Source of the DNA: Patescibacteria group bacterium
GTDB lineage: Bacteria; Patescibacteriota; Patescibacteriia; UBA2591; JAQUPP01
NCBI GenBank assembly: GCA_028716665.1
Contig: JAQUPP010000001.1
Coordinates: 477,046-541,045, forward strand
Direction: 5' to 3'
DNA: 64,000 nt
Under the pieces are notes generated by a model that was not told the DNA's origin, did no database searches, and saw only the letters and a program-made list of their open reading frames with translations. The position numbers and the translations under genes were made by a program. This document shows, one piece after another, positions 3,428-61,845 of the stretch. The stretch's first letter is position 1. Each line of letters begins with the position of its first letter.

Positions 3428-3537
3428 TTCTCCCTCCTTTTTTAATTTGATAGATTTTTATAATATAAATATTATCATATTATAAATTTTTGTCAAGACT
3501 TTATATTTAGAATTTATAAAATAATTTTTGGCAAATG

Positions 3538-3578: not shown

Positions 3579-4298
3579 TTAAGAAATTAAGCTTTCAATT
3601 CTTAACATAAGAGCAAAGCAACGTCTATTCATATGGTCGACGTAAAGGAATTCACAGTTTCGGCAATCAGCGCAAAATGAACTGTAGGGAGTGCCACACA
3701 TTCTTACTCCCAGAATCGGCGGATTCATTTTATTCCAGCGACTCATTATTTCTATCATGAATTCCGGTTTAAGCACGTAACAGTGGTTTAGAATATGCTT
3801 ATTCAGTTTGTATTTTTTCAAATCAGGAACATTTTCTTTGTTGTAATAACGCATAAAAGTCATCACTACCGGAATTTGGTGTTTTACCCAATAATATTTA
3901 ACCGCTTCATCGGCCTCTTCCAAATTATTGGTGGCCAAACGAAAACGGACAAACATTATGTTTGGGGGAGGGGAATCAACCAAAATTAATTTATGACCAT
4001 TACAGGTGAAAACAACCGGTCCGGGAAAATCAAATTTAGGAATTGAGGTATTGTAGAATTTATTGGGGAAATCTTTAGTTTTCCTGATAACCAATTCTCT
4101 CTGGATATTGGAATCGTGTCCGGAATTAACGCGGACAAGTTTGAATATTGCCTCTTTTTTCGTCGGTATCAGTGGCGTGTCAAGGGGGCGGTAAAATGCG
4201 CCATTATAAAAACATTCAGGGCATTTATTGGGGCATTTACCGGTTTGGGGAATACATTCAATTAAATTTGAACCAACTAATTTTGGATTAGTATCCAT
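3579..4298 (-). CDS. Cys-rich protein with an N-terminal CX3CX2C motif (radical-SAM-like or Gp37/Gp68-DUF5131-like); function unknown
   Basis: ...IECIPQTGKCPNKCPECFYN... near the N-terminus plus a C-terminal CADCRNCEF cluster. A strong SD (TAGGAGG) lies upstream. Confidence 0.4.
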   Translation of the reverse strand: MDTNPKLVGSNLIECIPQTGKCPNKCPECFYNGAFYRPLDTPLIPTKKEAIFKLVRVNSGHDSNIQRELVIRKTKDFPNKFYNTSIPKFDFPGPVVFTCNGHKLILVDSPPPNIMFVRFRLATNNLEEADEAVKYYWVKHQIPVVMTFMRYYNKENVPDLKKYKLNKHILNHCYVLKPEFMIEIMSRWNKMNPPILGVRMCGTPYSSFCADCRNCEFLYVDHMNRRCFALMLRIESLIS

Positions 4299-36702: not shown

Positions 36703-39129
36703 TTGAATTATATGAAAAAACAATTTAAAATTTTATCAATTCTAGCTATTTGTGTGATATTAAATTTTGTATTAATTAAACAAGCTTGTGCTGAAACTGA
36801 AGTTTCGGGTAATATCACGACGGATACTACTTGGACGTTGGCAAATAGTCCTTATATTGTAACTGCCACTGCGCAGGTTTTGGGAGGCGTTAGGCTTACG
36901 ATTGAACCAGGGGCTACGATTAAGTTTAATGAAGGTACGGGGTTAAATGTTGGCGGAGAGTTAATAGCGAGAGGAACTCAAATAAATATTATTAATTTTA
37001 TGCCCAATCAAAGTCTAAATTGGGGTGGAGTTAAATTTTTAGACTCAAGTATAGACGCTGTTTTTGACGAAAATGGAAATTATAAAAACGGAAGTATTAT
37101 AGAATATAGCAATATAGAAAAAGCAGGATATTATTCTACTGTAGTTGGGAAGAGGTATGCTATTGATATTGATAGTGCTTCCCCCTTTATTAGCAAAAAT
37201 ACAATAGTCGACAATCTCTCTGAAGCTATTTGGGCTATGCATTCTTTTGCTCAAATTACAAATAATGTTATTAGCAATAATACGGCTGGGATAACCATTA
37301 TTTATGATTCGCCCACAATCAAAAATAATAAAATATTTAGCAATAATAACTCAGGAATCCATTTTTATAATGGAGCAAATCCTATTATTACTTCAAACAG
37401 TATATACGACAATAATTATGGGATTTCTACTTGTTTATATCCCAATCCACCAAAGATAAATAATAATAATATTTTTAGCAATAATTATAATATTTTTTTA
37501 CAAAATTGTGGTGTATTCAGCGAGATAGACATGACTAAAAATTGGTGGGGGACAACAGACATTTCTTCTATTAATTCAAAAATTTATGATTATTATGATG
37601 ATATTTCTTTGGGTAAAGTAAATTATGAACCTTATGGCCTATCTGAACTAAAATTCGACGGAACAGATGCATTTAGTTCCGCACCTATAGTCGCTTGTAC
37701 ATCTTTTGTATATAGCGACTGGTCTACTTGCCAATCTAATGGCATACAAACCAGAACCGTAATTTCATCTTCCCCCTCTAGTTGTACAGGCGGTAATCCA
37801 GTGTTGACACAATCCTGCACATATACTTCGCCGACTTGTACTTCTTGGACATACTCAGACTGGAGCACCTGCTCCACTGATGGCCAACAAAGAAGAACAG
37901 TTGTTTCTTCTTTCCCTCTCGACTGTATTGGCGGTAATCCTATATTAACTCAGTCTTGTATTTATATTCCGTCAACCTGTATTTCATGGATTTATTCCGA
38001 TTGGTCTGTTTGTCAATCTAATAATATGCAAAATAGGTCTATAATTTATTCTTCTCCAAGTGGTTGCTCTAATGGAAATCCAATATTGACTCAATCTTGC
38101 ACATATATTTATACTCCACCAACTTGTACTTCGTGGACATATTCTAATTGGAGTGCTTGTATTAATAATCAACAAAGCAGAACAATGATATCGTCACAGC
38201 CTACAAGCTGTATTGGCGGTAATCCTATATTAATACAAACTTGTAGTCTTACACCAGCCTGTTCAGAAAACGACTGGACGTCTATTCTAACTCCAACGGC
38301 CTGTCCAAATAACAGTCAACAAACAAAAACATGGTATAAAATAGGACAATGCCAAGAAGGGGTTACTCATCCATCTACAGAAACAATTAGTTGTAATTAT
38401 CAAGCACTTACTTGTACTGATTTCATATACAATGATTGGAGTGCGTGCGGTTTAAGCGGTGTGCAATCAAGGACAGTATTTTCTTCTTCTCCAGCAAATT
38501 GTATAGGTGGAAATCCCATATTAAATCAAACCTGTACTTATATTCCTACCTGTATAGCTAATAATTGGTCTTGTGGTAATTGGTCTAGTTGTTCTTCAAA
38601 TGGTACTCAAACTAGAATATGCAATAAAATTTTAAATTGCGATGGAGGCGTATTGTCGCCTGCAACTACACAATCATGTATTTATACATCGCCAGAAAAA
38701 CAAGAAAATATCGGTTCACTTTCGGACGGAACATTGGCCAGAATAAAAGGTACGGCCGGTGTTTATTTAATCTATAATAACCAAAAACGCCCCATTAAGA
38801 GCGCTGCGGTATTTCTGGGCAGAGGTTATAAATGGAAAAATATAATTGACGTTGATGCGAATATATTAAATGTTTATCCTACGGGCTCAGAATTAACAAT
38901 TTCAGAAGCAATAAATATAGTGCCAAAAAATCAAGGTATTAAAATAAAGATTAATGTCCCAAGTTTGCGAGTCAGAAGTTTACCTAATGCGAGTGGAAAA
39001 ATTATTACTTCAGTTAAGAGCGGAAAAGAATATCAAGTGATTGAAGAACAAACCGGTTGGTATAAAATAAATTATAGTGTTAATAAAACAGGCTGGATAA
39101 TGAGCCAATATACTAAAATAATTAAATAG
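36703..39129 (+). CDS. Secreted protein with a right-handed beta-helix repeat region, about six TSP1-like Cys/Trp repeats, the shared C-terminal module and a terminal SH3b domain
   Basis: Signal peptide. NN(V/I)xSNN beta-helix repeats. Repeats of the form TCTSWTYSDWSTCSTDGQQRRTVVSS.P..C.GGNPILTQSC. Then DGTLARIKGTAGVYLIYNNQKRPIKS...GYKWKNII, then SLRVRSLPNASGKIITSVKSGKEYQVIEEQTGWYKINY. Confidence 0.75.
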   Translation: MNYMKKQFKILSILAICVILNFVLIKQACAETEVSGNITTDTTWTLANSPYIVTATAQVLGGVRLTIEPGATIKFNEGTGLNVGGELIARGTQINIINFMPNQSLNWGGVKFLDSSIDAVFDENGNYKNGSIIEYSNIEKAGYYSTVVGKRYAIDIDSASPFISKNTIVDNLSEAIWAMHSFAQITNNVISNNTAGITIIYDSPTIKNNKIFSNNNSGIHFYNGANPIITSNSIYDNNYGISTCLYPNPPKINNNNIFSNNYNIFLQNCGVFSEIDMTKNWWGTTDISSINSKIYDYYDDISLGKVNYEPYGLSELKFDGTDAFSSAPIVACTSFVYSDWSTCQSNGIQTRTVISSSPSSCTGGNPVLTQSCTYTSPTCTSWTYSDWSTCSTDGQQRRTVVSSFPLDCIGGNPILTQSCIYIPSTCISWIYSDWSVCQSNNMQNRSIIYSSPSGCSNGNPILTQSCTYIYTPPTCTSWTYSNWSACINNQQSRTMISSQPTSCIGGNPILIQTCSLTPACSENDWTSILTPTACPNNSQQTKTWYKIGQCQEGVTHPSTETISCNYQALTCTDFIYNDWSACGLSGVQSRTVFSSSPANCIGGNPILNQTCTYIPTCIANNWSCGNWSSCSSNGTQTRICNKILNCDGGVLSPATTQSCIYTSPEKQENIGSLSDGTLARIKGTAGVYLIYNNQKRPIKSAAVFLGRGYKWKNIIDVDANILNVYPTGSELTISEAINIVPKNQGIKIKINVPSLRVRSLPNASGKIITSVKSGKEYQVIEEQTGWYKINYSVNKTGWIMSQYTKIIK

Positions 39130-44111: not shown

Positions 44112-45305
44112 ATGCTCACTTGGATTGAAATTAAAAAACAAGCGATTAAACATAATCTTGGCCAATTCAGGAAAATTATCGGGCCGAAGGTGAAATTAAT
44201 GGCTGTGGTTAAAAGCAATGCTTACGGCCACGGAATAGTTGAAATAGCCAAAATTGCCTTAAAATCAGGGGCTAATTGGCTGGGGGTGGTTAATTTAGAC
44301 GAAGCGCTGATGCTTAGGCGGGCGAAAATCAAAGCCCCGATTTTTATTTTAAGCTACTGGCCCCTCACTTGCGGGCAAGAGAGAGACTACTGGGAAATGA
44401 TTGACCAAGTAAAAGAGGCGATTAAGCAAAATATTGATTTTCCTGTTTATACTTTTGAGCAAGCTGAATTTTTATCAAAAACCGCTAAAAGCATTAGAAA
44501 AAAAGTTAATATTCATATTAAAATTGATACCGGCGCGACCAGAATAGGCGTCTCAACCGAAGAAGCGGTTAATTTTATAAAAAGTATTAAGAATCTGCCA
44601 AATTTGAATATTGTCGGAATTTTTACTCATTACGCCGAATCAGAATCAAAAGATCAATCTTATACCAATCAACAAACGGAAAAATTTCAAAAAATATTAT
44701 CTTTGTTAAAATTTTTCGGCATTAAAATACCCTTGATTCACAGCGGTTGTTCGGCTTCAACAATTAATAATTCAAAAACATTTTTTAATTTGGTCAGAGT
44801 CGGCCTTGGCATGTACGGCCTTTATCCATCTGATTATACGAAAGTAAATGCTCAAAATAAAAAAAAATCCGCCCGAGGCGGATCGGCCTTGGGTCGAAAA
44901 GTTAAATTTGAACCGGCCTTATCATGGAAAACAAGAATTATTCAAATTAAAAATGTGCCTGCCGGAACTTTTGTCGGATATGACAGAACTTATCAAACAG
45001 ATAAAACGACAAAATTGGCTATTTTGCCAATCGGTTATTTCGACGGTTATGATCGCCATCTTTCAGACTGCGGCCAAGTTTTGATTCGCGGTAAATATTG
45101 CCCGATTCGCGGAAGAATTTGCATGAATTTAATAATGGTTGATGTCAGCAAAATACCTGACATCAAAGAAGGGGAAGAAGTGGTTTTAATCGGTAAACAA
45201 AATAAAAACGAAATTACAGTTGATGATTTGGCCAAGAAAATAGGCACTATCAATTACGAAGTAGTTTGCAGGATTAATTCATTAATTTTAAGAAAATATG
45301 TCTAA
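44112..45305 (+). CDS. alr: Alanine racemase
   Basis: MLTWIEIKKQAIKHNL...AVVKSNAYGHG (the PLP-Lys motif). I moved the start to 44112, because the tracked start at 44004 overlaps the upstream gene. Confidence 0.85.
   Translation: MLTWIEIKKQAIKHNLGQFRKIIGPKVKLMAVVKSNAYGHGIVEIAKIALKSGANWLGVVNLDEALMLRRAKIKAPIFILSYWPLTCGQERDYWEMIDQVKEAIKQNIDFPVYTFEQAEFLSKTAKSIRKKVNIHIKIDTGATRIGVSTEEAVNFIKSIKNLPNLNIVGIFTHYAESESKDQSYTNQQTEKFQKILSLLKFFGIKIPLIHSGCSASTINNSKTFFNLVRVGLGMYGLYPSDYTKVNAQNKKKSARGGSALGRKVKFEPALSWKTRIIQIKNVPAGTFVGYDRTYQTDKTTKLAILPIGYFDGYDRHLSDCGQVLIRGKYCPIRGRICMNLIMVDVSKIPDIKEGEEVVLIGKQNKNEITVDDLAKKIGTINYEVVCRINSLILRKYV
44859..44901. repeat. In-frame GC-rich palindromic insertion element inside alr, copy 1 of 3
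   Basis: aaaaaaaaatccGCCCGAGGCggatcgGCCTTGGGTCgaaaag. It encodes KKKSARGGSALGRK, and the stem CCCGAGGC/GCCTTGGG includes a G-U wobble. Confidence 0.6.
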
Positions 45306-48227: not shown

Positions 48228-48235
48228 TTAACAGC

Positions 48236-48628
48236 AGACTGGATAATTGCCCCCCACCACTTTTAGACCTTATTTATGTTTATTTATTATAGAGTCTAAA
48301 AGTGGTGCGGGGAGGAAAGTCCGAACACTTCCCTGGCTTTAGTCAGGGAGCAGGGTAGCGGGTAACGCCCGTCCACAGTAATGTGAGAGGTGCGAACAGT
48401 GACGCCGCAATCCGAAAGGGTTGAGGCTTCCGAACTTGTTCGGAAGAATCCCAAAAGTAATTTTGGGAGTGAAACGGCCAAATCCTTACCTGAGTGAAAG
48501 ACCAAAGGCTTTGTGCTTTGCACAAGGCAAGGTAGGTCGCCAGAACCTTGATGTAAATCAGGGTCCAGATAAATAATTATCGCCTTTCGGGGTACAGAAT
48601 TCGGCTTATAGGTCTACAACAAAAAAAT
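48236..48628 (+). ncRNA. rnpB: RNase P RNA (bacterial type A)
   Basis: The P4 strands GGAGGAAAGTCCGAAC and ACAGAATTCGGCTTA are universally conserved. GGGTAACGCCCGTCC (P10-P12 region). A 15-bp P3 hairpin with an AT-rich loop lies at 48256-48312. A terminator hairpin follows at 48629-48660. The ends are approximate. Confidence 0.8.
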
Positions 48629-50071: not shown

Positions 50072-51592
50072 ATGAAAAAATTAGAATTAGAAACAATAAT
50101 CGGTTTGGAAATTCATTTGGAAAGCAAAACTCAGAGCAAGCTTTTTTGTTCTTGTTCCAATAATACCAAATTAACCGAACCGAATGTTCAGATTTGCCCG
50201 ATTTGTCTGGGTCAACCCGGCGTATTGCCTGTATTTAATAAAGAAGCTTTAAAAAATGTTTTGATTTTAGGATTGGCATTAAAAGGAAAAATAAATTTAA
50301 TTTCTTGGTTTGACAGAAAAAATTATTTTTATCCAGACTTGCCGAAGGGTTATCAAGTCAGCCAATACAGTTTGCCTTTTATCAAAGGCGGATGCGTTGA
50401 AATTGACAGCGCGGATGGCATCAGAAAAATATCTTTGGAAAGAATTCATCTTGAAGAAGATACGGCCAAACTGATACATTCTTCTGATGATCAATGGAGT
50501 TTGCTTGATTTTAATCGGGCCGGCGTGCCGTTGATGGAGATAGTGACAGAACCGTGTCTAAAATCTCCATTTGAAGCAAAAATATTTTTACAAGAACTTC
50601 GCACCATTGCCAGATATTTGAATATTTCCGAAGCAGATATGGAAAAAGGACAATTTCGCTGCGACGCCAATATTTCATTAAGGCCGCAAGGAGAGAAAAA
50701 ATATTTTCCAAAAACGGAAATTAAAAATTTAAATTCGTTTAAAGCGGTGGAAGATGCCTTGGAATATGAAATAGAAAGACAAACAAAACTTTGGCAAGAA
50801 AAAAAACAACCCAAAATATCGTCTACTCGGGGCTGGAATGAAAAGAAAAAAAATACTTATCCTCAGAGAAGCAAAGAAGATGTCCAAGATTATCGTTATT
50901 TTCCCGAGCCGGATCTTCCCTCAATTGATTTTAATGAACTTAAAAAAGAGGATATAGATTTGGAGCTATTGGAAAAAAATATTATTGAATTACCCGGAAT
51001 TCGCAAGAAACGCCTTATTCAAATGTATAATTTTTCTTCAATTGATGCGAATATTTTAATTGAAAATAAAGGATTGGTTGATTTTATTGAAGAAACACTG
51101 GTTAAATTAAGAGAATGGATTGTTTCTACTGATATAATTGATGGCACGGAAGAGGAAATTTGGGAAACATCCAAACATCAAATTTCAAAAGTAACCGCCA
51201 ATTGGCTGATTAATCGTCTATTACCCTTACTTAAAAAGGCGGGAAAAAATGAAAAAGATATTTCATCGGAAAAATTCGTTGAATTCATTGTTTTGATTTA
51301 TGAAAAAAAGATTTCAAGCACTCTGGCGCAGACGATACTGGAAAGAATGTTTATTAAAGATGAAAATTTGAGCCAAATTATGGATCATCCCAGTGTTAAA
51401 CAAATTGACAGCGAAGATAATTTAATTGATATTGTAAAAGAGGTTATTAAAAATAACCAAGATACGGTTATTAGATATAAACAGGGGAAACACCAGGTTG
51501 TTCAATATCTGATCGGACAAGTAATGAAAAAGACCAACGGGCAGGCAAATCCCAAGTTGGTCCAGGAATTATTTGAGAAAGAATTAAGCTAA
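50072..51592 (+). CDS. gatB: Asp-tRNA(Asn)/Glu-tRNA(Gln) amidotransferase subunit B
   Basis: IIGLEIHLESKTQSKLFCSCS...PGVLPV... plus a C-terminal GatB/YqeY domain. Confidence 0.9.
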   Translation: MKKLELETIIGLEIHLESKTQSKLFCSCSNNTKLTEPNVQICPICLGQPGVLPVFNKEALKNVLILGLALKGKINLISWFDRKNYFYPDLPKGYQVSQYSLPFIKGGCVEIDSADGIRKISLERIHLEEDTAKLIHSSDDQWSLLDFNRAGVPLMEIVTEPCLKSPFEAKIFLQELRTIARYLNISEADMEKGQFRCDANISLRPQGEKKYFPKTEIKNLNSFKAVEDALEYEIERQTKLWQEKKQPKISSTRGWNEKKKNTYPQRSKEDVQDYRYFPEPDLPSIDFNELKKEDIDLELLEKNIIELPGIRKKRLIQMYNFSSIDANILIENKGLVDFIEETLVKLREWIVSTDIIDGTEEEIWETSKHQISKVTANWLINRLLPLLKKAGKNEKDISSEKFVEFIVLIYEKKISSTLAQTILERMFIKDENLSQIMDHPSVKQIDSEDNLIDIVKEVIKNNQDTVIRYKQGKHQVVQYLIGQVMKKTNGQANPKLVQELFEKELS

Positions 51593-52567
51593 AAATTTTT
51601 TAATTAAAATTTGAGCTTGGTTTAATTTTTTAATCCACTTTATACGTTTGTCGCGTTTAAACCATGTAATTTGACGCTTGGCATAATGCCGAGTGTTTTT
51701 TTTAATCAAATCTGTGGCTTCAGGAAGAGTTATTTCATTTCGCAGATAAGAAATAATTTCTTTATAACCGATTCCGCTAAAAGCCCGCGAATGAGCAAGA
51801 CCTGTCTTTGCCAAGGCTCCGGTAGGCAGGTATTTTTTTATCAATTTTTTAACTTCATCTATTAATCCTATATCAATCATTTTATCAACGCGCTGATTGA
51901 TTTTTTGATATAAAGTCTGACGAGGCAAATTGATGCCGATTAAAAGAGTTTTAAAAAGCGGTTCACCTTTTTGACGCGCCTGAGAGAAAGGTTTTTTGGT
52001 TTTTAAACAAACTTCCAGGGCGCGAATAACGCGGCGAATATTTTCTTTTTGAATGAATTTTTTTGCTTCAGGGTCAAGTTTGATTAATTTTTTCCAGAGG
52101 TAATCAGGTCCGTATTGATTAGCCATTTTTTCCAGTTTTTTTCTTAATTTTTCATCAGGCGCGATTGCCGGAATATCAAAATTATCCACCAGAGAGCTGA
52201 TATATAAACCGGTTCCGCCCACTAAAAACGGAGTTTTATTTCTTTTTTGAATATCATCAATGATTTCTATCGCTTTTTGTTTGAATTGCGCTACGGTGAA
52301 TTCTTGATTCGGCTGTATAATATCAATCATGTGATGCTGAATTCCATTAATAATATATCTGTTCCGGGTTTTGGGCACTGCTTTGGCGGTACCAATATCC
52401 ATTCCTTTATAAATTGTCCGGCTGTCGGCGCAAATAATTTCTACGCCATGCCAGCCCGAGGCTGGTCGGCCTTGGGCCGAAATTTTTTTTGCCAATTTTA
52501 AAGCTATATCAGTTTTGCCTGAAGCGGTAGGACCTAAAATAACAATGAGTTTTTTACGATTTGACAT
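51584..52567 (-). CDS. miaA: tRNA dimethylallyltransferase
   Basis: P-loop LIVILGPTASGKT, then ...ICADSRTIYKGMDIGTAK.... It carries a 12-aa in-frame insertion (see the repeat at 52449-52490). Confidence 0.85.
   Translation of the reverse strand: MSNRKKLIVILGPTASGKTDIALKLAKKISAQGRPASGWHGVEIICADSRTIYKGMDIGTAKAVPKTRNRYIINGIQHHMIDIIQPNQEFTVAQFKQKAIEIIDDIQKRNKTPFLVGGTGLYISSLVDNFDIPAIAPDEKLRKKLEKMANQYGPDYLWKKLIKLDPEAKKFIQKENIRRVIRALEVCLKTKKPFSQARQKGEPLFKTLLIGINLPRQTLYQKINQRVDKMIDIGLIDEVKKLIKKYLPTGALAKTGLAHSRAFSGIGYKEIISYLRNEITLPEATDLIKKNTRHYAKRQITWFKRDKRIKWIKKLNQAQILIKKFLA
52449..52490. repeat. In-frame GC-rich palindromic insertion element inside miaA, copy 2 of 3
   Basis: The plus strand reads gccaGCCCGAGGCtggtcgGCCTTGGGCcgaaatttttttt. 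On the minus strand it encodes SAQGRPASGWHG between the P-loop and the ICADS segment. Confidence 0.6.
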
Positions 52568-52607: not shown

Positions 52608-53369
52608 ATGAATATTTTTATAAAAACATTACTTGGCGAAACTCATCCTCTTAATTTATTGTTTTATTTATTGCTTTGCGCCGGCCCGACATTATTATGG
52701 TTCTTCTTTTGTTTAAGATTTGATCGCCGGCAGCCGGAACCAAAACGCGAGATTTTTAAATTTTTCAGTTTGGGGGCGATTATTACCATCCCTTTAATTT
52801 TTATTGCCGGGCCAATAACGAATTGGGTGGAACAAAATTTGTTATTAAATTCAATTTTAATAATTTTTATTTTGTCTTTTTTGGTTGATGGCCTGATTGA
52901 AGAATTGGCTAAATACGTTTTATTAAATTGGAGTCTTTATCGTTGCCGTTATTTTGATGAGATAAAAGACGGTTTTGTTTACGGTATGAGTCTCAGTTTG
53001 GGTTTGGCATTTACGGAAAATATTCTTTATGCTCTTTTTTCTAAAGATTTAGCCAACGGATCTGTGATTTTATTATTCAGGGGTTTCACCACTACTTTTA
53101 TGCATTATTTGTCAGGAGGAATTATCGGTTATCATTTGGCAATGGCTAAATTTTATAAGGGTAAAAGAATGACTCAGAAAATGTTTAAGTTTAGGGGTTT
53201 GATTTTAGCCATTCTGCTCCACGGATTATATAACAGCATTATCAGATTTAATTTTATGTGGGGTTTTATACCTCTGGCGATTATTCTCTGGATTGTATAT
53301 TTTATTATTGTTTACGAAATGAAAGCGACTACAAACAACCTTCTAGGCCCCACGAAGCCGCTTGAGTAA
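52608..53369 (+). CDS. PrsW-family intramembrane protease (CPBP-like)
   Basis: EELAKY (the EExxK motif), FTENxLY, an HxxxN/D-like motif (LLHGLYN) and multiple TM helices. I moved the start to the ATG at 52608 to avoid overlapping miaA. Confidence 0.5.
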   Translation: MNIFIKTLLGETHPLNLLFYLLLCAGPTLLWFFFCLRFDRRQPEPKREIFKFFSLGAIITIPLIFIAGPITNWVEQNLLLNSILIIFILSFLVDGLIEELAKYVLLNWSLYRCRYFDEIKDGFVYGMSLSLGLAFTENILYALFSKDLANGSVILLFRGFTTTFMHYLSGGIIGYHLAMAKFYKGKRMTQKMFKFRGLILAILLHGLYNSIIRFNFMWGFIPLAIILWIVYFIIVYEMKATTNNLLGPTKPLE

Positions 53370-54624
53370 TTTTTACATTGTAAAACTCGTTAATTTTTAT
53401 TAATGAGTTTTCCTGCCCAGGGCCGGTCAGCCTTGGGCTGATATTTTTTAAAAATATTTTAATATGTTTAAAAGTATCAGTCACACCGTAAAGATTATTT
53501 TTTTTATCATAACCGATTATTAACACTTCTATAATTTTTCCGATATATTTTTTATTATTTTCCAAAGCCGTTTTTTTTAAAATTTCATTTAAAATTTCTT
53601 CGCGTTGTTTTTTTTCTTCCTTGGTTACGTTATCTTTAAAAGTTTTGGCCGCCAAGGTTTGAGGACGAGGGGAGTATTGGGCAAGATAAGCCATGTCAAA
53701 TTTTAGAGAGCGCATCAATTTAGCTGTATCGTTAAATTGTTTTTTTGTTTCGCCCGGAAAACCGACAATAATGTCAGTGGAAATGCTGAGATTTTGTATT
53801 TTTCCACGAAGCTTTTTAATCAGATTCTTATAATAAGATACGGTATAATGCCGGTTCATTTTTTTAAGTATTTCGTTATTGCCGGCCTGTATCGGCAAGT
53901 GCATATATGGCCCGACTTTCTTACATTCAGCGATGGTATTAATGAGTTCGTCAGTCAAATCTTTTGGATGATTGGTGATAAATCTTAACCAAAATTTACC
54001 CGGCAAATTATCCACCATTTTTAAAAGTTGGGAAAAATTAACATCGTTTTTTTGATAAGAATTTACGTTTTGTCCCAATAAAATTATTTCTTTATAATTG
54101 TCTTTTAATAATTTTTTAATTTCGGAAATAATGATTTTTGGAGATCTGGAGGTTTCTCGGCCTCGGGTGTAGGGGACGACGCAATAAGCGCAGAAGTTGT
54201 TGCAGCCGGTCATAATCGGCACATAAGCGGTAATAGGCGAAGAAATAACGGGTAAAATGGATAAATAGTCATCGGTTTGTTTGTTCTGTTGTTTGGTTAA
54301 AAATTTTGTTAATTTTGGCAAATCTTTTATATCAAATATCAAATCAAATTTTTCTTTTAATTTATTTTTATCTTTTAAGAGAACGCAGCCGGTTAAAATA
54401 ATTTTAAGATTAGGATTCTGTTTTTTAATTCGATTAAAATTTTTAATCATTCCGTAAACCCGATCTACAGCTTTTTGGCGAACCGAACACATATTAACAA
54501 TAATCAAATCCGCCTCGTTAATTTTTGAGGTTTCTTTATATCCGATATTTTCCAAAACTGCGGCGATTCTTTCTGAATCGCTTTTATTCATTTGGCAACC
54601 GAAAGTGATAAGATTGTATTTCAT
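53329..54624 (-). CDS. miaB: tRNA-i6A37 methylthiotransferase MiaB (radical SAM)
   Basis: MKYNLITFGCQMNKSDSE (MTTase N-terminus), radical SAM CxxxCxxC (CNNFCAYC) and a C-terminal TRAM domain. The start is set at the ATG at 54622-54624; the tracked start is a TTG 30 nt upstream. The 3' end overlaps prsW by 41 nt. Confidence 0.85.
   Translation of the reverse strand: MKYNLITFGCQMNKSDSERIAAVLENIGYKETSKINEADLIIVNMCSVRQKAVDRVYGMIKNFNRIKKQNPNLKIILTGCVLLKDKNKLKEKFDLIFDIKDLPKLTKFLTKQQNKQTDDYLSILPVISSPITAYVPIMTGCNNFCAYCVVPYTRGRETSRSPKIIISEIKKLLKDNYKEIILLGQNVNSYQKNDVNFSQLLKMVDNLPGKFWLRFITNHPKDLTDELINTIAECKKVGPYMHLPIQAGNNEILKKMNRHYTVSYYKNLIKKLRGKIQNLSISTDIIVGFPGETKKQFNDTAKLMRSLKFDMAYLAQYSPRPQTLAAKTFKDNVTKEEKKQREEILNEILKKTALENNKKYIGKIIEVLIIGYDKKNNLYGVTDTFKHIKIFLKNISPRLTGPGQENSLIKINEFYNVKITQAASWGLEGCL
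53411..53449. repeat. In-frame GC-rich palindromic element inside the miaB TRAM-domain region, copy 3 of 3 (diverged)
   Basis: tcctGCCCAGGGCcggtcaGCCTTGGGCtgatatttttt, which encodes ...ISPRLTGPGQ... on the minus strand. Confidence 0.5.
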
Positions 54625-54724
54625 ATGAGTTGATAATAAATTAACGAGCCCCAAAGGGGCCCCGTTGGGGTCAACGAATCTTTTACTCGTTAACTTGCCA
54701 AACTCGTTAATTATTTTGCTTTGA

Positions 54725-57744: not shown

Positions 57745-57897
57745 ACTAAAATTATTTAAAAATTAAGTTTGAGCTCTGCGAAAACGCAAAATTTTTAACT
57801 ATAATTTTGTGTACCCGCCCAGATTTTTGGATATTTAATTATTATTTTTTAAGATAACTTGATTTTTTTAATAATCCAAAAACTTGGGCGGGTGAAT

Positions 57898-57933
57898 GTT
57901 TTGTTGTTCCGACTTAACGTCCGGAGACAAAAC
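57898..57933. repeat. Hairpin element (GTTTTGT-TTCCGAC-ttaac-GTCCGGAG-ACAAAAC), an inverted copy of 61681-61717
   Basis: The reverse complement matches agttttgtctccggacgttaagtcgga(g/a)c(t/a)acaaaac at 61681. Confidence 0.6.
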
Positions 57934-57953
57934 TATTCATATTATACCATTTT

Positions 57954-61551: not shown

Positions 61552-61680
61552 ATGATTTTTTTTGATTATTATTTTATTAAAATAAACATTATTTGACCTG
61601 TCTTAATTTTAGTCCTTAAATAGAAATTTTGCAATACCCATTGCCATATTTTAGCATATTTGTTAAAATAATTATAAAGA

Positions 61681-61845
61681 GTTTTGTCTCCGGACGTTAA
61701 GTCGGAGCTACAAAACCTTTACCCCCTCCTTTATCCCAACAATAAACTTTTGATAATCATTAGGGTAAAAGGCGAAGCCGCTTCGCTTACATAAGATTAT
61801 AAATCAATAGACCTTCGATGGAGTAAAGGAGGGGGTACTCAAAAT
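61681..61845. repeat. Structured intergenic repeat element, copy B (AGTTTTGT-CTCCGGAC-gtta-AGTCGGAG-ct-ACAAAAC, then a 13-bp CCCCCTCCTTT/AAAGGAGGGGG stem)
   Basis: It shares arms and stem sequences with copy A at 30763-30945. Both lie upstream of SD-less genes with the start context aaaaaattt(t)ggtATG. Confidence 0.6.

Follow-up and report, generated by a model that had tools for sequence, protein, structure and literature searches.

The question raised by this locus is why a tRNA-modification gene should read, in frame, through a GC-rich hairpin-forming repeat in a region of the genome that is otherwise poor in GC. The gene is miaA of a Patescibacteria group bacterium, and the region analysed, hereafter the window, is a stretch of 64,000 nt (64 kb) from contig JAQUPP010000001.1 (assembly GCA_028716665.1, positions 477,046 to 541,045). 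The GC content of the window is 35.5%, while that of the repeat core, which is 30 nt long, is 73–77%. The miaA segment is probably a copy of a very small, non-autonomous and hairpin-dependent element that is mobile, or was so recently, and that is tolerated in surface loops of proteins. This reading is based on the repetition of the element, its insertion polymorphism, its genome-specific subfamilies, the lack of target duplication and the compensated stems. The host gene and the copy within it are as follows.

51584–52567, minus strand: miaA (tRNA dimethylallyltransferase), the host gene, identified by Pfam IPPT (E = 6.4e-83), by sequence matches to MiaA proteins in the PDB and by the Foldseek match of its AlphaFold2 (AF2) model to 3foz/2zm5

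52451–52480, minus strand: 30-nt core of the miaA copy of the element, scoring 54.3 bits (E = 2.7e-16) with the covariance model R1 and encoding S30–W39 (SAQGRPASGW)

The first-pass annotation had described this segment as the second copy of a repeated palindromic element, with the 29-mer GCCCGAGGCTGGTCGGCCTTGGGCCGAAA as the repeat unit. The 29-mer is present as an exact match on the plus strand at positions 52454–52482 and the repetition is real, but the true unit is the 30-nt core at 52451–52480, and its structure is a double mini-hairpin rather than a single palindrome. The core consists of two head-to-tail units of 15 nt without any spacer, and in each unit a stem of 6 bp closes a loop of 3 nt. 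Along the minus strand, which is the sense strand of miaA, these units read TCGGCC-CAA-GGCCGA and then CCAGCC-TCG-GGCTGG, and both stems are perfect. The minus-strand translation of the segment is SAQGRPASGWHG, placed between the P-loop helix and strand β2, and the residues across the element are K28-I29-S30 A Q G R P A S G W39-H40 G41 V42. As single-stranded DNA, the miaA core has the double hairpin as its minimum-energy fold on both strands (−12.4/−12.5 kcal/mol, z −3.1/−3.5).

The same architecture is kept throughout the family, whose consensus is TTT-TCCGCC-CAA-GGCGGA-TCCGCC-TCG-GGCGGA-AAA, with T-rich flanks on the 5′ side and A-rich flanks on the 3′ side; arrays of units never exceed two. 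In the alignment of 101 copies from which R1 was built, 99.3% of the cells of the double mini-hairpin are paired, and double-sided changes in the stems occupy 88 cells, against 23.9 in shuffled alignments (0 of 500 shuffles reach 88). Furthermore, the mutual information of the local pairs (2,12) and (17,27) is 0.95 and 0.91 bit, respectively, with Watson–Crick pairing in 115 and 114 of the 119 copies, compared with 0.03 bit for the long-range pairs that a single long hairpin would need, it being understood that the sequences were picked by pattern and only three free pairs are informative for this covariation. Both mini-hairpin stems are thus maintained by compensatory changes. A single long palindrome was rejected as the structure, because it leaves the variable positions unpaired in 43–45% of the sequences and the minimum-energy fold is the double hairpin. 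Rfam gave no match to the element at either gathering or permissive thresholds.

Two further copies of the element are present in the window.

44868–44897, minus strand: core of the alr copy, 50.5 bits with R1, reading TCGACC-CAA-GGCCGA, TCCGCC-TCG-GGCGGA on the minus strand

53412–53441, minus strand: copy in a MiaB-family methylthiotransferase (radical-SAM) gene (53329–54624, minus strand), 48.1 bits with R1

Over the 64 kb, R1 finds exactly three copies (54, 50 and 48 bits), all best on the minus strand, and the next match has 9 bits; neither the Hamming scan nor the covariance-model scan of the 64 kb gave any copy beyond these three. The miaA copy had been presented as the second copy, beside the one in alr. 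The alr copy is real, and a third one exists in the MiaB-family gene, which is the neighbour of miaA. In alr, the counterpart of the quoted 29-mer lies at 44871–44899 and has 3/29 mismatches to the miaA copy (26/29 identical), while the number of matches with at most three mismatches expected by chance is 0.00, as estimated from dinucleotide-preserving shuffles. The alr gene reads its copy on the plus strand as SARGGSALGR, in the linker joining the N- and C-terminal domains, and the reading frames thereby confirm that miaA and alr translate the element from opposite strands. Their two copies have in common the first unit TCGRCC-CAA-GGCCGA, which is rare elsewhere (3 of 119). The MiaB-family copy reads TCAGCC-CAA-GGCTGA, CCGGCC-CTG-GGCAGG on the minus strand and gives SPRLTGPGQ in a third frame, while its Ser/Ala/Gly frame would run into a TGA. 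Since the three copies in the window are read in three different combinations of frame and strand, what is conserved is the DNA and not the peptide.

The three sites can be compared with two syntenic relatives, L003 and L004 (loci are designated by L and a number), in which the order of the genes is the same and MiaA is 80–83% identical. All three sites are empty in both relatives, and R1 finds no copy there. The net differences in length between the window and these relatives are 33 nt in miaA, 30 nt in the MiaB-family gene and 36 nt in alr, all of them in frame, and the MiaB-family copy is a clean insertion of 30 nt against L003 as well as L004. At the protein level, P0121 (93% identical) alone among the 120 listed homologues shares the Alr insert of the window, while the other 119 lack exactly ten residues, and at least the alr copy is therefore a recent gain. 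In addition, 112 of the 120 closest listed MiaA proteins have no insert, including the nearest three (77–83% identity). The insertion sites are thus polymorphic between close relatives.

The element is not confined to this genome. The pattern TCNRCCSAAGGCNGAYCNGCCNNNGGC was scanned over one genome per species and matched at least 120 loci, which, among the matches listed, belong mostly to Patescibacteria from numerous classes (Saccharibacteria, Kaiser-, Portnoy-, Moran-, Magasanik-, Falkow-, Kerfeld-, Lipton- and Buchananbacteria, Paceibacter, and single-cell genomes). The listed matches also include several metagenome-assembled genomes (MAGs) of Omnitrophota with multiple copies each. Five matches are on viral contigs, and the few in GC-rich genomes are probably due to chance. 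When an element lying deep within a stop-free open reading frame (ORF) of at least 120 codons is counted as genic, the 93 low-GC loci divide into 44 genic, 25 intergenic-like and 24 ambiguous ones. The hosts identified with Pfam, among those tested, are the CCA-adding enzyme, tRNA-guanine transglycosylase (TGT), DNA polymerase I, aspartyl-tRNA synthetase (AspRS), cysteinyl-tRNA synthetase (CysRS), [FeFe] hydrogenase and a glycosyltransferase of the PMT_2 family (dolichyl-phosphate-mannose protein mannosyltransferase-like). The insertion measures 30 nt, that is ten codons, and is usually without a stop codon, so that the host genes stay in frame. Moreover, 32 of the 44 genic copies are in the two frames that give S-A-x-G-G-[SP]-A-x-G-[GW] (binomial p = 1e-7 against one third), a preference that fits selection for an innocuous, linker-like peptide. 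The element does not keep to one orientation with respect to the gene, being sense in 32 cases and antisense in 12. About 20 further copies were found in the 680 kb around 95 seed copies, which matches the density in the window, approximately one copy per 20–35 kb.

Two of these loci deserve separate mention. At positions 3760–4054 of L060, a contig of 43% GC labelled Pseudomonadota, a span of 300 nt of intergenic DNA contains three copies, with another two no more than 3 kb away. In L018 and L035, which are from different Patescibacteria genomes, the element occupies one and the same position in the CCA-adding enzyme (F-SAQGGPA[AS]GW-[NE]IE), and this position may be another shared or hot-spot site.

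The position of the insert in the MiaA protein was judged from the predicted local distance difference test (pLDDT) and the secondary structure of an AF2 model built on 104 homologues, and from the gap in solved homologues. The model has a mean pLDDT of 91.3 and superposes on Escherichia coli MiaA in complex with tRNA (3foz_A) with TM-scores of 0.84/0.90 and a root-mean-square deviation of 2.5 Å, while residues 31–40 average only 63 and lie between helix 18–32 and strand 42–46. In the sequence alignment, the solved MiaA proteins have a gap of 11 residues exactly at the insert. The insert is consequently in a loop, as had been suggested, being a low-pLDDT segment of the model that is absent from solved MiaAs; its location right after the Walker-A helix also holds, except that it adds about 11 residues and not 12. 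In the known fold of MiaA, the helix that precedes the insert has the P-loop at its N-terminal end, so the insert lies at the opposite end of this helix, from where it would presumably not touch the active site. The miaA gene is very probably intact and functional, with the insert as a passenger loop.

Conservation of the segment in MiaAs of diverse taxa had been named as a result that would count against the earlier reading. The segment is not a conserved feature of MiaA, since 112 of the 120 closest proteins lack it, yet seven other, scattered Patescibacteria MiaAs among the 120 unexpectedly go half of the way towards such a result. They carry a related insert, SAxGGxASGWxG[VAI], at exactly the same site, and each of them has nearest neighbours without the insert. 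The DNA of five of them shows that the double hairpin is intact in L005, L213 and L214 and partly decayed in L007 and L215. The six copies at this site for which there is DNA, that of the window included, agree in codon position and in frame, and each has an additional codon behind the retained ‘xG’, giving a net gain of 33 nt, while the other pairs of filled and empty sites differ by a net 30 nt.

As to how the element would move, no direct repeat of 2–5 nt around 92 copies exceeded the permutation expectation for a target-site duplication, and the T/A preference of the flanks is not pairwise correlated. Copies within a genome differ at 3.47 of the 30 positions, against 5.84 of 30 between genomes (0 of 5000 permutations), and L132 contains two copies that differ by a compensatory pair. 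We suppose that the hairpins would be the feature recognised when the element is copied, and that copying would probably act on single-stranded DNA, through a structure-specific enzyme provided in trans. Y1 transposases recognise DNA hairpins and leave no duplication, which makes a Y1/HUH-type enzyme of the kind found in insertion sequences IS200/IS605 the most natural and the leading, yet unproven, candidate. Selection would then keep only those copies that are in tolerant surface loops and in a frame giving a harmless peptide rich in Ser/Ala/Gly or Pro. The MiaA insert would be such a passenger loop, without a catalytic role, placed at the distal terminus of the P-loop helix, away from the P-loop.

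The search for the enzyme by tblastn, made with an IS200 TnpA probe over about 1 Mb of flanks, gave one IS200-type Y1 transposase (PF01797, E = 1e-35) at positions 3485–3904 of L066, located 150 nt downstream of an element-bearing cysS. The GC-rich hairpins on either side of it have GAA and TTG triloops and differ from those of the element. The right ends of the relatives of this transposase carry a 13-nt hairpin, CCGCC-TYT-GGCGG, identical to the core of unit 2, although a single homologous family amounts to one observation. In L177, one unrelated full copy of the element lies 1.2 kb from a relative of the transposase. As the autonomous parent of the element, the IS200 family of L066 is doubtful, the double hairpin being absent from the ends of 80 related copies.

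Several points weigh against a mobile element. No mobilising enzyme was identified, the Y1 transposase of L066 being the only one in about 1 Mb of element-bearing loci, and the 80 loci of its relatives, which come from metagenomes, have no double hairpin at their ends. Neither the copy number per complete genome nor a transposition intermediate was observed. The near-identity of the core across classes and phyla could reflect a conserved host function, and the compensatory changes could result from selection on a functional DNA or RNA structure and not from a requirement of copying. Moreover, the codon position, frame and extra codon shared at the MiaA site look like a single origin and not like repeated insertion, though the nearest relatives are empty; repeated independent insertion leaves the shared extra codon unexplained, while a single ancient insertion requires many precise losses. 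With these points in mind, we put forward tentatively, and with slightly more doubt than belief, a wider proposal for Patescibacteria and possibly Omnitrophota. They would harbour an active or recently active family of 30-nt ‘codon-neutral’ elements, the smallest in-frame mobile elements known, which would spread within genomes and between distant lineages by hairpin-recognising machinery and would repeatedly add loops of ten residues to essential enzymes, the α1–β2 loop of MiaA being an example of a hot spot.

Other explanations of the miaA segment have to be weighed as well, and one of them concerns the homopolymer beside it.

52483–52490, plus strand: T8 homopolymer (A8 on the sense strand of miaA; codons K27 K28 I29), adjoining the element

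This run had been given as T8–10, encoding Lys-Lys on the minus strand and prone to slippage. It adjoins the element and encodes Lys-Lys as described, and its length is exactly T8. A slippage-prone switch that makes the expression of miaA phase-variable could draw on the A8 lying 5–10% of the way along the ORF, immediately next to a stable hairpin. However, A7 occupies this place in the relatives whose site is empty, within the codons for the conserved Lys-Lys of LAKK[FI], which means that the run predates the insert. There are 31 A/T runs of at least 8 nt in the window, so the run beside the miaA copy is ordinary, and an identical full-length MiaA is encoded in two independent Patescibacteria MAG assemblies; a switch of this kind is hardly credible. 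The notion that the segment is a chance GC-rich palindrome or an artefact of assembly or sequencing can be regarded as already refuted, because no match is expected in shuffles, the stems covary, and the element occurs in independent assemblies and single-cell genomes, always in frame in long ORFs. The double hairpin might, on the other hand, be a nucleic-acid signal that benefits the host and is kept by selection, its presence in genes being a side effect of a need for many sites in a gene-dense genome. Candidates would be the site of a conserved DNA- or RNA-binding protein, a structure that stabilises mRNA or stops antisense transcripts, or a DNA-uptake tag. The core is almost identical across many classes of Patescibacteria and in Omnitrophota, its stems are kept through compensatory change, and in the miaA and MiaB-family copies the hairpin is followed by a T-run on the plus strand, antisense to the gene, all of which would agree with a signal. 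Against it, the flanks of the family are T-rich upstream and A-rich downstream, which is the reverse of an intrinsic terminator, and such a terminator was rejected for this reason; the T8 of miaA is likewise not terminator-like, since it is on the antisense strand, begins 5 nt past the stem and is older than the insert. In addition, one copy per 20–35 kb is far below the density of the uptake sequences generally known, the sites are dispensable in close relatives, the orientation is mixed, as given above, and there is no counterpart in Rfam. We therefore consider a signal unlikely.

It is also conceivable that the insert is a functional, lineage-specific loop of MiaA, which was present in an ancient ancestor, has been under selection at the protein level and has been lost repeatedly. 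Eight of the 120 MiaAs compared, the one in the window and the seven others, share SAxGGxASGWxG[VAI] with an identical codon position and frame, the extra codon is common to all six with DNA, and L007 and L215 have lost the hairpin complementarity while a similar peptide is kept. On the contrary side, alr and the MiaB-family gene translate the same DNA into unrelated peptides, this DNA also occurs between genes, the nearest neighbours of each insert-bearing MiaA (62–86% identity) are without the insert, solved MiaAs lack it, its structure is predicted with low confidence, and the miaA copy shares its rare first unit with the recent copy in alr. A loop selected for its own sake is accordingly quite improbable, and a mobile element accepted as a passenger is the reading that we prefer.

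Among the known systems, a mobile element of this kind would be closest in behaviour to the Rickettsia palindromic elements (RPEs) and closest in architecture to the double-hairpin elements and GC clusters of mitochondria. Like the element described here, RPEs are repeated palindromic DNA inserted in frame in unrelated housekeeping genes of a small AT-rich genome, and they are translated as an extra surface peptide that is compatible with the fold of the protein (PMC10969869). In contrast, RPEs are around 150 bp long (about 100–150 bp) and form about ten families, each encoding a conserved peptide within one genus, whereas the present element has 30 nt and two mini-hairpins, is read in several frames and is spread over a phylum and apparently beyond; the two are set apart here by their described properties. 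The double-hairpin elements of mitochondria, together with repetitive hairpin-forming elements and the GC clusters of yeast mitochondria, are likewise short GC-rich hairpin or double-hairpin repeats in AT-rich and gene-dense genomes; they occur in intergenic DNA, in rRNA and occasionally in protein genes, are not removed from transcripts, and have conserved stems with variable loops (PMC2800124; PMC4478555). The machinery that mobilises these elements is likewise given as unknown (PMC2800124; PMC4478555). The mitochondrial elements differ in that they are organellar, lie mainly between genes and vary in length without being restricted to multiples of three, while the element in question has a fixed length of 30 nt, belongs to free-living or epibiotic bacteria and has about half of its copies in ORFs, so the likeness is one of analogy only.

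Repetitive palindromes of extragenic DNA (REPs) are extragenic by definition and have a conserved 5′ GTAG, and REPINs are inverted pairs of REPs with a spacer. The element described here is unlike them in being a head-to-tail pair of hairpins without a spacer and in being often intragenic (44 genic against 25 intergenic-like loci). It resembles them as a short imperfect palindrome with many copies per genome, no target duplication, compensated stems, genome-specific subfamilies and paired action (for REPINs, PMC3337134). No REP-associated tyrosine transposase (RAYT), the Y1 enzyme by which REPs and REPINs are mobilised, was found beside the element in the about 1 Mb of flanks with the same IS200 probe, which gave one IS200-type match and none flanked by the element. 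The ends of IS200/IS605 are similar in having subterminal GC-rich hairpins with short loops, in leaving no target duplication and in the insertion next to a short AT-rich motif. For elements derived from IS200/IS605, we infer that the hairpins would serve as recognised ends here too, with the reservation that the double hairpin is not at the ends of the 80 copies, which represent one IS200 family. Classical MITEs (miniature transposable elements with inverted repeats) differ from the present element, which has no target-site duplication, and they also differ in size. The highly iterated palindrome HIP1 and the DNA uptake sequences and uptake signal sequences (DUS/USS), as they are generally known, are also short words inside genes in preferred frames, but they are words of 8–12 nt that occur about once per kb and are not insertions, unlike the discrete 30-nt insertion found about once per 20–35 kb. 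In the literature, we found no description of such an element in Patescibacteria, including by searches with the exact DNA and peptide strings, the coverage being incomplete and an earlier description possible.

If the element is indeed mobile, then ultra-small bacteria with almost no intergenic space would be the host of a mobile element built to live inside essential genes. It would provide a compact and tractable model of the mobilisation of hairpin DNA, and conserved enzymes would again and again gain new surface loops from it. At the same time, it would in practice confound the alignment of Patescibacteria proteins as well as their phylogenies and predicted structures, while its sequence tag and covariance model could be used for tracing horizontal exchange among uncultivated lineages. 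The consequence for miaA itself would be modest.

Besides the element, miaA has a second insertion.

51800–51829, minus strand: second in-frame 30-nt insertion in miaA (LPTGALAKTG, residues 247–256), relative to L003, which has nothing at this place

L004 has at this site a different insert of 39 nt that contains TCCGCC-AGCT-GGCGGA and gives a weak match to R1 (10.9 bits, E = 0.039), and the block of residues 251–260 in the AF2 model averages a pLDDT of 63. The insert at 51800–51829 is possibly a decayed or a different hairpin insert. In the spacer upstream of the MiaB-family gene, at 54647–54668, there is a different GC-rich mini double hairpin (GCCCC-AAA-GGGGC and then CCC-GTT-GGGG), which is an insertion of 22 nt compared with the empty site in L004 and is present in a diverged form in L003. 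The alr gene also contains, at 44355–44387, another in-frame insert of 33 nt (YWPLTCGQERD), which has its first six bases repeated at its end (TACTGG ... TACTGG), is absent from the L003 orthologue and is of a different kind from the double hairpin.

Elsewhere in the window, paired sequences of 52 nt with 88% complementarity are located at 57890–57941 and 61673–61724 on either side of dnaE, and their arms look hairpin-prone. Around position 52000, the orientation of the genes changes from plus to minus, the sign of the AT skew flips and the cumulative GC skew flattens, which would fit converging replication, for which the window is too short to say more. The bacterial RNase P RNA of class A at 48231–48624 (121 bits) is the sole Rfam family above threshold in the window. 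Finally, a large gene contains, at 37744–38536, diverged tandem coding repeats with a spacing of 141–291 nt and TCxxWxYSDW-like units.

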